DNA from: a bacterium
GTDB taxonomy: Bacteria > Patescibacteriota > Saccharimonadia > Saccharimonadales > HK-STAS-PATE-42
NCBI GenBank assembly: GCA_029781075.1
Contig: JAKOXJ010000042.1
Span: 1 to 30,401 of the forward strand
Direction of reading: 5' to 3'
Length of the DNA: 30,401 bases
The position numbers and the translations under genes are program-made. How positions within the stretch are numbered: position 1 is the first letter of the stretch; each line of letters opens with the position of its first letter. Below are positions 606 to 7,500 of this stretch, in pieces. Below the pieces are notes generated by a model that was not told the DNA's origin, ran no database searches, and saw only the letters and a program-made list of their open reading frames with translations.

Positions 606-929
606 TTACATCTTGATCTCAACATCGCAACCGGCAGGAAGGTTCAAACTCATCAACCTGTCGATTGTCTGCGGAGTTGGATCAAGCACATCGATTATGC
701 GCTTATGCACGCGAGATTCGAATTGCTCCTGAGAGTTTTTGTACTGAGCAGGAGCCCTAACTACGCTATAAAGCGTACGGCGAGTTGGTAAAGGGATTGG
801 CCCGTTAACCTTAGCACCAGTCCGAGTAGCAATATCTACGATCTGTTTTGCAGATAGATCTGCTACTTTGTGATCAAAAGCTTTAAGTCTGATTCTGATC
901 TTTCCCGTTGCTTTAGCTGCTGTTGCCAT
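606..929 (-). CDS. rpsJ: 30S ribosomal protein S10 (uS10)
   Basis: [22 protein letters not shown] and HKRIID motifs. Confidence 0.98.
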
Positions 930-959: not shown

Positions 960-2147
960 TTACTTGACGATCTTTGTTACTACACCAGCACCAACTGTAC
1001 GTCCACCTTCACGGATAGCTAGGTTTAGACCTTCTTCCATCGCAATTGGTGAGATTAGTTTAACTTTGAAAGTTACTGTATCGCCAGGCATTACCATTTC
1101 TTTGTCAGCTGGGAGCTCAATTTCTCCGGTCACGTCAGTTGTTCGGAAGTAGAACTGCGGCTTATAACCCTTAAAGAATGCTGAGTGACGTCCACCTTCT
1201 TCTTTAGTTAGGATGTAAACCTCTGCTTCGAACTCTGTGTGTGGAGTTATTGAACCTGGTTTAGCAAGAACCTGACCACGTTCGATCTGTTCACGCTCGA
1301 TACCGCGAAGTAGTAATCCTGCGTTATCACCGGCTTGACCCTGATCTAGAGACTTCTTAAACATCTCAACACCAGTGATTGTAGTCTTCTGAGTATCTTT
1401 AATACCAACGATTTCTACTTCGTCACCAACCTTAACGATACCTTGCTCAATTCTACCTGTAGCAACAGTACCACGTCCTTTAATACTAAAGACATCTTCG
1501 ATCGGCATTAGGAATGGCTTATCTAGATCACGAACTGGCTCTTTGATCCATTCGTCAACAGCGTCCATTAGCTCCATGATTGAATCTTCAGCAGCACTGT
1601 CGCCTTCTAGAGCCTTAGTAGCAGAACCTTTAACGATTGGTGATTTCTCATCGAAGCCTTGCTTCTTAAGCTCTTCACGGATTTCATCTTCTACTAGTTC
1701 AACTAGATCTGGATCAGCAAGGTCCATCTTGTTTAGGAAGACAACGATAGAAGGTACACCGACCTGCTTAGCAAGGAGTATGTGCTCTTTAGTTTGAGCA
1801 AGAGGTCCATCGTTACCAGCAACTACTAGGATAGCTCCGTCAATCTGAGCAGCACCAGTGATCATGTTCTTGATGTAATCAGCGTGACCTGGCATGTCGA
1901 CGTGAGCGTAATGACGCTTTTCTGTCTCATACTCAACATGTGAAGAGTTAATAGTAATTCCACGTTCTTGCTCTTCTTTGGCACCATCAATGGTAGCAAC
2001 AGTAGCGACTACGTCGTTAGCTCCACCAGGTACTCTTTTTGCTAGAACAGCTTTAATTGCAGCCGTAAGGCTTGTTTTACCGTGGTCAACGTGTCCCATT
2101 GTTCCAACGTTAACGTGTGGCTTGGTTCTTGAATAAGTATCTGCCAT
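960..2147 (-). CDS. tuf: Elongation factor Tu
   Basis: [44 protein letters not shown]; 395 aa. Confidence 0.99.
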
Positions 2148-2351: not shown

Positions 2352-2381
2352 ATTTTACACTAGTGGTAGTGGTTTTTGCAA
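2352..2381 (-). promoter_or_regulatory. sigma70-type promoter for the structured RNA and tuf-rpsJ
   Basis: TTGCAA (2381-2376), 18-nt spacer, TAAAAT (2357-2352). Confidence 0.6.
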
Positions 2382-2393
2382 ACCCCTATTAAT

Positions 2394-2657
2394 TCACTTC
2401 CACCAAGGACGCTCATCCTCAAAAAACCATCCAAATACTTTAGGCGGTATATCAAAAGCCATACCTACTATCTTAGCCCCAGTAGCAGATATGAAGTCTC
2501 GTGCTACGCCAAGCTCTTCATCAAAAAGACCCGGCACTTTTACCGAGTCATTCATAAGGGGAGGATGCACAAAAGCCTCATCTGGATGTTGACACCCTAC
2601 AGATCTGATATCTTCTGTAGGATCTTCGTAGGGTCTATCTAACTCTAATAATGTCAT
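2394..2657 (-). CDS. Hypothetical protein, 87 aa, acidic
   Basis: ATG-started ORF co-oriented with fusA/tuf, TATAAT at 2693-2688 upstream; no recognised family. Confidence 0.5.
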   Translation of the reverse strand: MTLLELDRPYEDPTEDIRSVGCQHPDEAFVHPPLMNDSVKVPGLFDEELGVARDFISATGAKIVGMAFDIPPKVFGWFFEDERPWWK

Positions 2658-2969: not shown

Positions 2970-5057
2970 CTATTCTTCGGACTTTTTGCCACGCTTAGAG
3001 ATGATCTCTTCGGCAACATTTGGTGGTACTTCTGCGTAGTGGTCAAGCTCCATAACAGAGTTAGCGCGACCTTGTGACATTGACCGTAGATCAGTAGTGT
3101 ATCCAAACATGTTACCAAGTGGAACGAAAGCGATAACTTCTTTAGCTCCGTAAGCATCTTCCATACTTTCGATACGTCCACGCCTTGAGTTTAGATCTCC
3201 GATAACATCTCCCATGAAGTCCTCTGGCGTAGTTACCGTAACCTTCATGATTGGCTCCATAATTATTGGGGCAGCAACCTTAACAACATTTTGTAGACCG
3301 ATTGAACCTGCAATCTTAAATGACATTTCTGAAGAGTCGACATCGTGATAAGTTCCGTCGAACAAAGTGACTTTGACATCTACGACTGGGTAGCCGGCAA
3401 TAACACCACTTGCCATAGCTTCTTCGATACCGGCGCGAACTGCTGGGCGATATTCTTGGGGCACAACACCTCCTTTGATCTCATCAACAAATTCGAATCC
3501 AGCACCGCTTTCTTGTGGCTCAATGCGTAGGTGCACATCTCCGTACTGACCACGTCCACCGGACTGACGGACAAATTTACCTTGTGCCTCAGCTGTTTTC
3601 TTGACAGTCTCACGATAGGCCACCTGTGGAGCACCGATATTTGCTTCTACTTTAAATTCTCTCTTCATTCTATCTACTAGAATCTCTAGGTGAAGCTCAC
3701 CCATTCCACGGATAATTGTCTGGGCGGTTTCTGGGTCAGTTGCTACTTTAAAGGTTGGGTCTTCTTCTGCCAAGCGCTGAAGAGCGAGTGACATTCTCTC
3801 TTGATCCTGTTTAGTCTTAGGTTCAATAGCAATAGCTACTGGTGGCTCTGGGAAGTCAATGTTCTCTAATAAAATTGGCTTTGCAACGTCACAAAGCGTA
3901 TTTCCGGTAGTAGTATTTTTAATACCAACAATTGCAGCAATGTCGCCGGCACGGATCTCATCAATATCTTCACGCTTATCAGCACGAAGTCTCACTAGAC
4001 GGCCGACACGCTCTTTCTCTCCAGTCGAAGCGTTAAGCACATAAGAGCCGGTCTTAAGTACTCCAGAGTAAACACGGAAGTAACAAAGTTTACCTACAAA
4101 TGGATCGTTAGTTAACTTGAAAGCAAGACCAGAGAGCGGCTCATCATCACTTGGCTTCCTACTTATAGTGTCATCAGACTTAAGATCAGTCCCCCATGTC
4201 TCACCCTTATCAATCGGAGAAGGCAGATAATCGACCATTAGATCTAATAGGGCCTGAACGATGACACCGCGTCCATCTCCACCAGAGACTATATAAAGTT
4301 CTCCACTTATTACAGCTTTTCTTAATGCTACTTTTAGTTCATCTGTAGTGATTGAGTCTTCACCCTCTTCTAAGAAGCGCATCATTAGTTCGTCATCGGC
4401 CTCAACTGCACTTTCAACTAATAGGGAGCGAGCGTTCTTGGCTTTTTCGACCATGTCAGCTGGGATTTCTCCTTCGACTAGTTCTTTATCGGTAAAGTCG
4501 CTGTAGGTGTAGGCCTTCATCTCAACAAGGTCGACAATACCGTTAATATCTTTTTCAAAACCGATTGGTAAATGAACAGGAACGGCTTTTTTGCTGAGGC
4601 GAGCATGAATACTTTCGAGTGATTTATAGAAGTCACCTCCGATCTGGTTGATCTTGTTAATAAAGCAGATTCTTGGGACTCCGTATTTTGTAGCTTGACG
4701 CCAAACCGTTTCTGTTTGAGCTTCAACGCCTGATTTACCATCGAAGACAACAACCGCACCATCAAGTACACGCATCGAGCGCTCTACCTCAACAGTAAAG
4801 TCTACGTGACCAGGAGTATCAATAATGTTAATTTGTTTACCCTTCCAGAAGCATGTTACTGAGGCAGCAACGATGGTAATACCACGTTCACGCTCCTGAT
4901 CCATCCAGTCGGTAGTTGTTTCACCTTCGTGAACTGCCCCAATTTTATGGCTTAAACCTGTTCTATACAGGATTCCTTCTGTGGTTGTAGTTTTACCGGC
5001 GTCAATGTGAGCGATAATACCAATATTTCTGAAGTCGTTGATGTCTGTCTTGGCCAT
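2970..5057 (-). CDS. fusA: Elongation factor G
   Basis: [48 protein letters not shown]; 695 aa. Confidence 0.99.
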
Positions 5058-5214: not shown

Positions 5215-5306
<92 letters not shown>

Positions 5307-5319
5307 ATTAATTGAATAT

Positions 5320-5565
5320 ATGAAACCTACAGATCTAGCTAAGATTCAGGTCATGATGAAGTGCCAAAAATGTGGTGGCCAACTTAAAAAAGTAAGTTGG
5401 AAAATTACTGCCGGAGCATTTGATGCGGGTAAAGAAGTTGAACAAACCGTATTTCAGTGCCCAGACGACAAAGAATTTATAAGCTTAGAAATATCCACTG
5501 GTAATGAGTCAGAATTTGCCTTTACGTTTGATGATGAGTCCTACGACCAAGAAGATACTGATTAG
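5320..5565 (+). CDS. Small Zn-ribbon-like protein, 81 aa, acidic tail
   Basis: Start moved to ATG 5320 because the track start lies inside the tRNA; CQKC and CPDD motifs. Confidence 0.65.
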   Translation: MKPTDLAKIQVMMKCQKCGGQLKKVSWKITAGAFDAGKEVEQTVFQCPDDKEFISLEISTGNESEFAFTFDDESYDQEDTD

Positions 5566-6171: not shown

Positions 6172-6867
6172 TTAATTTAAATTTAGAAATTGCCTAGCAA
6201 AGACGAGACCATGGACTTCTTTAGCGCCAGCATCCTTAAGGACCTTTGCGGCAGAATTCAATGTAGATCCTGTAGTTGTGACGTCATCAATTAAAATAAT
6301 GGCATCTCCGTTTATTAGGGCTTTGCGATGAGCAATAAAGAACTTCTTAGAGGCTTCAGAGCGTTGCTGCTTAGTTGATCCAATTTGATCAAATGAGCTC
6401 GTTCTAATAAGCAAAGACTTGAATCTAAGCCCCTCTTTTTTGGCAAAACCTTTAGATATGAGATATGATTGGTCCCAGCCTCTTTTACGGGCTCTTCTTC
6501 CTGCGGTAGGGACTGGGCTAACGATAATGTTCTTTATACTTGATATTCTTGAAATTGTAGAGATTGCCGACGACATTGGCTTGGTCGCGGCGTAGGTGTT
6601 GTCAAATTTTAAAGCTTTAACTAAATCTGAACTTAAAGTATTTTTATAATCGGAATACCAAGCTATAGAATCGAGGCTCTGTTTAGGTTTGCATCTACCG
6701 CAAATACCAAGATCTTTGCATTTTTGGTTACATTTATAGCAAGTTTTGCCGGAGGATTTATCCATAACTTCTTCAAGGCATTTTTGACAACAAATGAAAC
6801 CTTCCTCATTACAGCTTAAACAGTGGTGGGGTGCTACAAAACTAAGGGCATAATCTAGGTATTTCAT
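6172..6867 (-). CDS. comF: ComF family protein (double Zn ribbon plus PRTase-like domain)
   Basis: CLSC, CQKC, CYKC, CGRC; VPVP...RKRGWDQS; LIDDVTTTGSTL PRPP-binding motif. Start set at MKYLDY (ATG 6867). Confidence 0.85.
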   Translation of the reverse strand: MKYLDYALSFVAPHHCLSCNEEGFICCQKCLEEVMDKSSGKTCYKCNQKCKDLGICGRCKPKQSLDSIAWYSDYKNTLSSDLVKALKFDNTYAATKPMSSAISTISRISSIKNIIVSPVPTAGRRARKRGWDQSYLISKGFAKKEGLRFKSLLIRTSSFDQIGSTKQQRSEASKKFFIAHRKALINGDAIILIDDVTTTGSTLNSAAKVLKDAGAKEVHGLVFARQFLNLN

Positions 6868-6996
6868 GGCAGTATTGGGGTTAAGTTTACTCGGCAATCT
6901 TGCAATAACTTCTATTGTAGGTTTAGAATGTACCTTAATACAAATTTGATTTGTGAAATAGAGAAAAACCTGGAGGGGTAGTAAACTAAAATAGCT

Positions 6997-7500
6997 ATGG
7001 CTAGAAGAAAACAATTGCCTACAAATGATGACAGCATGTTACTAGAAGATGATTTTGGGGCAGCTTTTTTGGATGAAGAAATAGTACTTGAAGGAGATCA
7101 AGAACCTACCGTAGAAGAGCCTGCAGAAGTTGAAGTGGTTGAAGAAGAAGTTGTAGAGCTTGGCGAGGAAGATGCGCAGCTCGCAGTAGATCTTTACGAA
7201 ACTGAGGAAAAACTTATTCTTAAAGCACGCGTCGCTGGAGTAGATAAGAGCGATATTGATTTAGAGCTTAACGAAGGTGTCATAACTATCAGTGGAGTTC
7301 TTAGTAGCAACGATAGCGATGAGATTACTCAGTACCATCTCCAGGAGTGCTATTGGGGCAAATTTTATCGTCAGGTAAAATTCCCTGTCCCAGTTAAAGA
7401 GGATGAGGATTCTATTGATGCGGTGCTAGATGAAGGAGTTCTAATCCTAACATTTATAAAAGAGAAAACTGACACAGCAAAGAAGATCAGAATTAGTTAG
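6997..7500 (+). CDS. Hsp20/alpha-crystallin small heat shock protein with acidic N-terminal arm
   Basis: AVDLYET...ARVAGV...ECYWGKFYRQVKFP...LDEGVLILT. Confidence 0.9.
   Translation: MARRKQLPTNDDSMLLEDDFGAAFLDEEIVLEGDQEPTVEEPAEVEVVEEEVVELGEEDAQLAVDLYETEEKLILKARVAGVDKSDIDLELNEGVITISGVLSSNDSDEITQYHLQECYWGKFYRQVKFPVPVKEDEDSIDAVLDEGVLILTFIKEKTDTAKKIRIS

Follow-up and report, generated by a model that had tools for sequence, protein, structure and literature searches.

Introduction

[quoted passage not shown] In canonical GTPases, the hydroxyl group of the Ser or Thr in the G5 motif hydrogen-bonds this Asp, as Ser145 and Asp119 do in Ras. Canonical elongation factor G (EF-G) combines NKxD with a G5 motif of the form (C)G(S/T)A(L/F)KN.

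Engineered EF-Tu D138N, Ras D119N, and Ypt1 D124N, which use XTP, carry an Asp-to-Asn substitution at the fourth NKxD position, as cited in PMC7952092 (see also PMC2120555). Each of these proteins contains a single laboratory substitution and has an untouched G5 motif. SpoIVA and YchF/OLA1, ATPases derived from TRAFAC GTPases, have also lost the G4 Asp, and SpoIVA additionally has an acidic residue in G5. The G4 motif of YchF reads NxxE, with the Lys lost. In SpoIVA, which is not a translation factor, the G4 Lys is lost as well (NSxR) and the acid lies two residues past the G5 Ser (SxE); both the Asp loss and the new acid have been shown to set base preference (PMC7952092). Finally, a survey of the PDB indicates that guanine can be read by Asp or Glu residues outside NKxD in proteins without this motif (PMC11594714).

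Here, we analyze a Saccharibacteria EF-G in which the two guanine-recognition motifs are replaced by NKIN and GGDGRG and in which the segment spanning G4, the G′ subdomain, and G5 belongs to a clade separate from that of canonical EF-G. A full-text literature search found no published description of this trait and none of a relocated base-reading residue in a translational GTPase.

Results

The window analyzed here is a stretch of 30,401 nucleotides from a Saccharibacteria genome (assembly GCA_029781075.1, contig JAKOXJ010000042.1, positions 1–30,401). Its fusA gene (2970–5057, minus strand) encodes a 695-amino-acid EF-G. Whether this is the only fusA had been left as a point to check in the first-pass annotation of this DNA; within the source assembly (563 kb, 101 contigs, 74% complete), it is the sole full-length EF-G match, and the weaker matches are EF-Tu, LepA, TypA, and IF2.

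The fusA product scores 1030.8 bits against the TIGR00484 equivalog model (cutoff 659.4), which covers residues 3–690 of 695, and it displays the five-domain EF-G architecture in order (PF00009, PF03144/PF22042, PF14492, PF03764, and PF00679). EF-G2, Tet(M)/Tet(O), and mitochondrial EF-G2/RRF2 are EF-G superfamily paralogues of divergent function. In contrast to its score above the EF-G equivalog cutoff, the fusA product falls below the cutoffs of the EF-G2 model (508 versus 890) and of the Tet(M)/Tet(O) ribosomal protection model, tet_protect (363 versus 775). The closest solved structures are the EF-Gs of Staphylococcus aureus and Thermus thermophilus, with E values of ∼1e-258 (4e-258 for S. 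aureus). An AlphaFold2 model of the G domain matches solved EF-G structures with TM scores of 0.8–0.88 in Foldseek, confirming the EF-G fold. The mean pLDDT of this model is 81; a strand (residues 255–259) leads into a lower-confidence loop (260–266) followed by a helix (267–277), and the G5 loop shows a dip in confidence, with a mean pLDDT of 77 over residues 261–270.

The protein therefore resembles canonical FusA (2XEX, 1DAR/2BM0/2BV3, and E. coli 7N2C) in its domains, its length, its G1, switch I, and G3 motifs, and its single-copy housekeeping role. The gene neighborhood is also similar, as fusA adjoins tuf and a presumed rpsJ. The tuf gene (960–2147, minus strand) encodes an EF-Tu with canonical NKMD and GSA motifs, which serves as an internal control from the same genome. 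A 107-residue open reading frame farther downstream of fusA and tuf (606–929, minus strand) is presumed to be rpsJ, assigned by position and size only. Neither rpsL nor rpsG is present upstream of fusA; a divergent tRNA-Ser(UGA) gene (5215–5304, plus strand) instead occupies the usual place of rpsG. We conclude that fusA is the housekeeping, single-copy EF-G gene of this Saccharibacteria genome and, judged by position and copy number, that its product is essential.

Other features of the surrounding DNA can be summarized briefly. A listed 114-residue open reading frame (5221–5565) begins within the tRNA-Ser(UGA) gene, which makes its N-terminus, at the least, a probable misprediction. The 822-nucleotide gap between fusA and tuf (2148–2969) contains only short overlapping open reading frames (2376–2642, plus strand, and 2394–2657, minus strand). 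A 280-residue open reading frame at 6172–7014 (minus strand) has Cys-rich motifs at its N-terminus and a phosphoribosyltransferase-like motif (DDVTTTGST) at its C-terminus; by eye, it appears ComF-like.

We next consider the nucleotide-binding motifs, all encoded on the minus strand. The P-loop (G1, AHIDAGKT, residues 16–23, 4989–5012), switch I (RGITI, residues 58–62, 4872–4886), and switch II with its catalytic His (G3, DTPGH, residues 80–84, 4806–4820) are canonical. The G4 motif (residues 134–137, 4647–4658) is read from the codons AAC AAG ATC AAC as N134-K-I-N137, with Asn137 in place of the guanine-reading Asp. The G5 motif (residues 259–264, 4266–4283) is GGDGRG and includes new Asp261 and Arg263 residues; the corresponding canonical motif, CGSA(L/F)KN, is one residue longer. 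Both canonical features of EF-G, NKxD in G4 and G(S/T)A followed by a stacking Leu or Phe in G5, are thus absent. The first-pass annotation had reported the loss of both guanine motifs (NKIN at 134–137 and G260-D-G-R-G at 4280–4266), the integrity of G1, switch I, and G3, and the retention of NKMD and GSA by the EF-Tu in the window. Each of these readings is exact. The base-binding pocket of this EF-G is rebuilt while its phosphate-binding and catalytic elements stay intact.

The other translational GTPases of the source genome keep the G4 Asp (EF-Tu NKMD, LepA NKID, TypA NKID, and IF2 TKTD), a clear sign that the cell uses GTP.

The motifs NKIN and GGDGRG recur in all 120 nearest homologues, which are 77–100% identical over the G domain; those that carry a source name are Saccharibacteria or Patescibacteria. 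We aligned 104 G domains, comprising 67 variants, 23 canonical sequences belonging to this phylum, and 14 from outside it. The pairing of G4 and G5 forms is absolute in this set: 67 sequences have Asn137, Asp261, and the one-residue deletion, 37 have Asp together with Ser, Thr, or Ala, and mixed forms are not found among the 104. Residues N134, K135, N137, G140, G260, D261, and R263 are invariant in 67/67 variant G domains, which represent more than 40 families. The pocket has gained exactly one new invariant acidic residue where the old one was lost.

Six further positions split the variant and canonical classes completely or nearly so. Residue 138 is Gln or Leu in variants and Arg, Lys, or Ala in canonical sequences; residue 171 is Ile, Leu, or Val versus Phe or Tyr; residue 259 is Gly (rarely Thr or Ala) versus Cys (also Ala, Thr, or Val); and residues 262, 264, and 266 are Gly, Gly, and Ile versus Ala, Asn, and Gly, respectively. 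Residue 109 (4731–4733) is a class-linked position that lies outside the exchanged block described below: it is Met in 62/67 variants and Ala, Asn, Gln, or Glu in canonical sequences, and the EF-G of the window has Ser.

The register of the G5 loop bears on what Asp261 might contact. In an L-INS-i alignment, Asp261 faces the G5 Ser/Thr and the following Leu/Phe is deleted. A HMMER pairwise alignment instead opens the gap ahead of the Gly, which sets Asp261 opposite the G5 Ala. We favor the L-INS-i placement because Gly260 then matches an invariant canonical Gly, the Thr and Ala found at position 259 fit the canonical Cys, Ala, Thr, or Val, and Arg263 matches a Lys or Arg. The earlier motif alignment was correct in recognizing a changed G5, but its placement of Asp261 opposite Ala gives way to one opposite Ser/Thr on the basis of the L-INS-i result and the substitution pattern at 259 and 260.

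In a tree of the 104 G domains from which the motif columns had been removed, the 67 variants group as a single clade (SH-aLRT 97), corresponding to one change. A tree of the block alone, with motif cores removed, likewise unites all variants (94). The tree of the rest of the protein is different. GTDB families f20 and f54 each contain both EF-G types; the f20 variants and canonical sequences interleave (95), and the f54 variant is sister to the f54 canonical sequences (100), so at least three changes would be forced on this tree.

Identity profiles and the comparison of block and rest-of-protein trees delimit the exchangeable segment. Its core, at approximately residues 129–300 (4158–4673, minus strand), contains G4, the following helix, the G′ subdomain, and G5. 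The block is ∼170–260 residues long, with a sharp left edge at approximately residue 129, directly before NKxN/D, and a gradual right edge between approximately residues 300 and 395. Within f20, the variant G150 and the canonical G202 are 90% identical over residues 1–125 and 91% over residues 401–690, versus 46% over residues 126–300, a region in which f20 pairs of the same type are 73–77% identical. Across f20 and f54, variant and canonical sequences share 82–91% identity outside the block and 43–50% inside it, where same-type pairs share 62–77%.

These trees and identity profiles indicate that the variant pocket arose once, within a block that has since been swapped into and out of otherwise near-identical EF-G genes by homologous recombination. 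The first-pass annotation had proposed that the two changes co-evolved. They do always occur together; repeated independent co-evolution was dropped as an explanation, because both sites lie in one recombining block of single origin and their covariation reflects one historical event plus linkage. Both pocket types function in near-identical EF-G backbones and, presumably, with near-identical ribosomes. Since GTP and ATP are both abundant in cells, this interchangeability is compatible with the use of either nucleotide.

To describe the distribution of the trait, we use 401 sampled genomes of the phylum, a set that takes in one unpublished genome (G154); this genome enters the tallies only, its sequence being left aside, and no conclusion depends on it by itself. 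An EF-G match at E ≤ 1e-60 is present in 386/401 genomes, with exactly one match in 385 of these 386. A strict DNA pattern, NK(I/L/M/F)N-x2-GGDF, occurs in 128/401 genomes, with one match each and none in the reversed control; it undercounts, as GGNF, GGSF, and GADF forms are missed. When G(G/A)(D/N/S)F is allowed, the pattern is found once each in 141/401 genomes (35%) and in 105/320 genera, with one match in the reversed control. Within the window's own class, all 25 genomes, including the source genome, are positive for the variant G4. Many of the variant genomes are 99–100% complete or closed and have one EF-G, which makes the variant the sole translocase where it is present. The earlier suggestion that similar motifs might be a clade trait of Saccharibacteria is borne out, and the trait reaches far beyond this group.

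The variant pattern also occurs in at least 118 stretches of a species-representative genome collection. Among the matches listed, 114 are EF-G and four (L103, L119, L154, and L215) were rejected as chance occurrences in other genes. Names on the EF-G matches listed (at least 114) include Saccharibacteria, Berkelbacteria, WWE3, Doudnabacteria, Dojkabacteria, 'Nomurabacteria', and the Patescibacteria group. Four EF-Gs among the matches listed are on short metagenome-assembled contigs labeled as Proteobacteria (Bordetella, Methylococcaceae, and Gammaproteobacteria). These contigs (L110, L158, L162, and L209) are probably mis-binned Patescibacteria sequences: the EF-Gs of L110, L158, and L162 look mis-binned because they are 76–86% identical to CPR EF-Gs, and L209 has Dojkabacteria-like motifs.

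Among 150 EF-G-like cluster representatives listed (50% identity, all life), 140 have a readable G4, and 138 of those have NKxD; together with the invariance of the variant residues, this shows that the difference did not arise by chance. Only one short fragment among the 150 carries the variant motifs. The only other non-Asp G4 among the 140 is that of P0207, a 495-residue EF-G-like representative with NKME, an Asp-to-Glu change. We also noted differences in EF-Tu within the phylum. The EF-Tu genes beside fusA in L240 (G094, f27) and L239 (G207, f102) encode NKFP and NVFG, respectively, without the G4 Asp, and both retain GSAL in G5; EF-Tu is canonical in families f14 (NKVD), f52 (NKVD), and f75 (NKTD).

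Discussion

The variant EF-G has Asn at the fourth G4 position, as do the engineered XTP-using GTPases, and lacks the G4 Asp, as do SpoIVA and YchF/OLA1. It differs from both. Unlike the engineered proteins, it occurs naturally, is fixed in an essential gene of hundreds of species, and comes in every case with a rebuilt G5 that has a new Asp; Asn137 is thus present, but not in an otherwise canonical pocket. Unlike SpoIVA, it retains invariant N134 and K135, and its acid aligns with the G5 Ser itself, so that neither a degenerate G4 without Lys nor an S-x-E acid is found.

The explanation that we prefer, and to which we assign an even chance of being correct, is that the carboxylate once provided by G4 now sits where the G5 Ser would be and that GTP is still used. 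In the geometry that we infer, the carboxylate reading guanine N1-H and N2-H2 would have shifted from G4 to Asp261, at the G5 Ser/Thr position. As Asp is one carbon longer than Ser, Asp261 could reach the place left by the G4 Asp, and Asn137 would brace it in what amounts to a reversed Asp–Ser pair. O6 would continue to be recognized by backbone NH groups of the Gly-rich loop, Arg263 may take over stacking from the deleted Leu/Phe, and the protein would remain a ribosome-activated GTPase that drives translocation. A relocated carboxylate is plausible in principle because guanine is read outside NKxD in other proteins (PMC11594714). Several points argue against it. In the HMMER register, Asp261 aligns with the G5 Ala and would lie beside O6, a location in which a carboxylate would be unfavorable for guanine, and the structural model is less confident in the G5 loop. 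Engineered replacement of the G4 Asp with Asn moves specificity off GTP, as cited in PMC7952092, and a preference for ATP results when SpoIVA and Era lack the G4 Asp and have an acidic residue in G5 (PMC7952092).

These points lead to the possibility, which we regard as rather doubtful, that base specificity has relaxed or switched and that the variant EF-G accepts ATP, alone or besides GTP. The amide of Asn137 would donate to adenine N1, and a G5 Asp near position 6 would accept from N6 and repel guanine O6. Both canonical guanine determinants are gone, the HMMER alignment pairs Asp261 with the O6-reading Ala, the base-stacking Leu/Phe is deleted, and six further positions in the pocket region are class-specific, completely or nearly. 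There is also a precedent, as SpoIVA, a descendant of TRAFAC GTPases, became an ATPase via loss of the G4 Asp and gain of a G5 acid, and transplanting these features made Era prefer ATP (PMC7952092). The parallel is inexact, however: the EF-G retains the G4 Asn and Lys, whereas SpoIVA (NSxR) loses the Lys (PMC7952092), and Asp261 is not at the S-x-E position, where the variant has either a deletion or Arg. By the L-INS-i alignment and the substitution patterns, Asp261 takes the place of the Ser, on the side of the base that bears N1 and N2, and the other translational GTPases of the genome (EF-Tu, LepA, TypA, and IF2) are unchanged. Extended to the phylum, and held just as loosely, this idea would mean that about one-third of Patescibacteria, including human-associated Saccharibacteria, drive translocation with ATP or any purine triphosphate, through a sole EF-G whose non-discriminating pocket spreads as a recombining block. 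It is less probable that the pocket has simply weakened, binding guanine nucleotides less tightly and less specifically, with Asp261 and Arg263 kept for loop structure rather than base reading. The nucleotide affinity of EF-G is intrinsically low, and with GTP at millimolar levels and no requirement for an exchange factor, the protein would tolerate a weaker pocket. The f27 and f102 EF-Tu motifs (canonical GSAL with NKFP or NVFG) indicate that the G4 Asp can be lost in this phylum without an obvious new acid. For the EF-G variant, on the other hand, Asp261 and Arg263 are invariant in 67/67 deeply divergent sequences, and neither the G4 nor the G5 change is observed without the other; both facts suggest a specific functional pairing.

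Specificity for XTP or ITP, as in the engineered Asp-to-Asn GTPases, was suggested in the first-pass annotation as suiting an organism that scavenges nucleotides, and it seems very improbable. Known cells contain very little XTP or ITP, making such use physiologically unlikely. The G4 Asp-to-Asn change does switch Ras and EF-Tu to xanthine nucleotides, as cited in PMC7952092, but these switches leave G5 intact, whereas it is rebuilt here. The link to scavenging is not supported, given the four other translational GTPases that retain the Asp and the sister genomes of the same families, presumably with the same lifestyle, that have either the canonical or the variant block. Because the assembly is 74% complete in 101 contigs, one could suspect an artifact, whether misread or misassembled sequence or a degenerate paralogue accompanying a canonical fusA, but we consider its likelihood negligible. 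All 120 nearest homologues, which come from independent assemblies, have the same motifs, and so do 141 sampled genomes; many of the latter are 99–100% complete, some consist of a single contig, and each has one EF-G. The fusA reading frame itself is uninterrupted, and its product greatly exceeds the EF-G equivalog cutoff.

Conclusions

A textbook-invariant residue, the Asp of NKxD, is missing from the essential, single-copy EF-G of hundreds of species, and the residues that replace it are under strict purifying selection. One practical consequence is that motif-based annotation of GTPases will misjudge these EF-Gs. Natural, near-isogenic EF-G pairs, 82–91% identical outside the block, have either pocket, which makes the nucleotide question directly testable. 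If a carboxylate on another loop reads guanine, as in the relocation that we prefer, these proteins would be an instructive natural example of the rewiring of a nucleotide pocket. If translocation instead runs on a different energy currency in a major bacterial radiation, the finding would be larger. In oral Saccharibacteria, the variant pocket could also be useful as a marker or target specific to the lineage.
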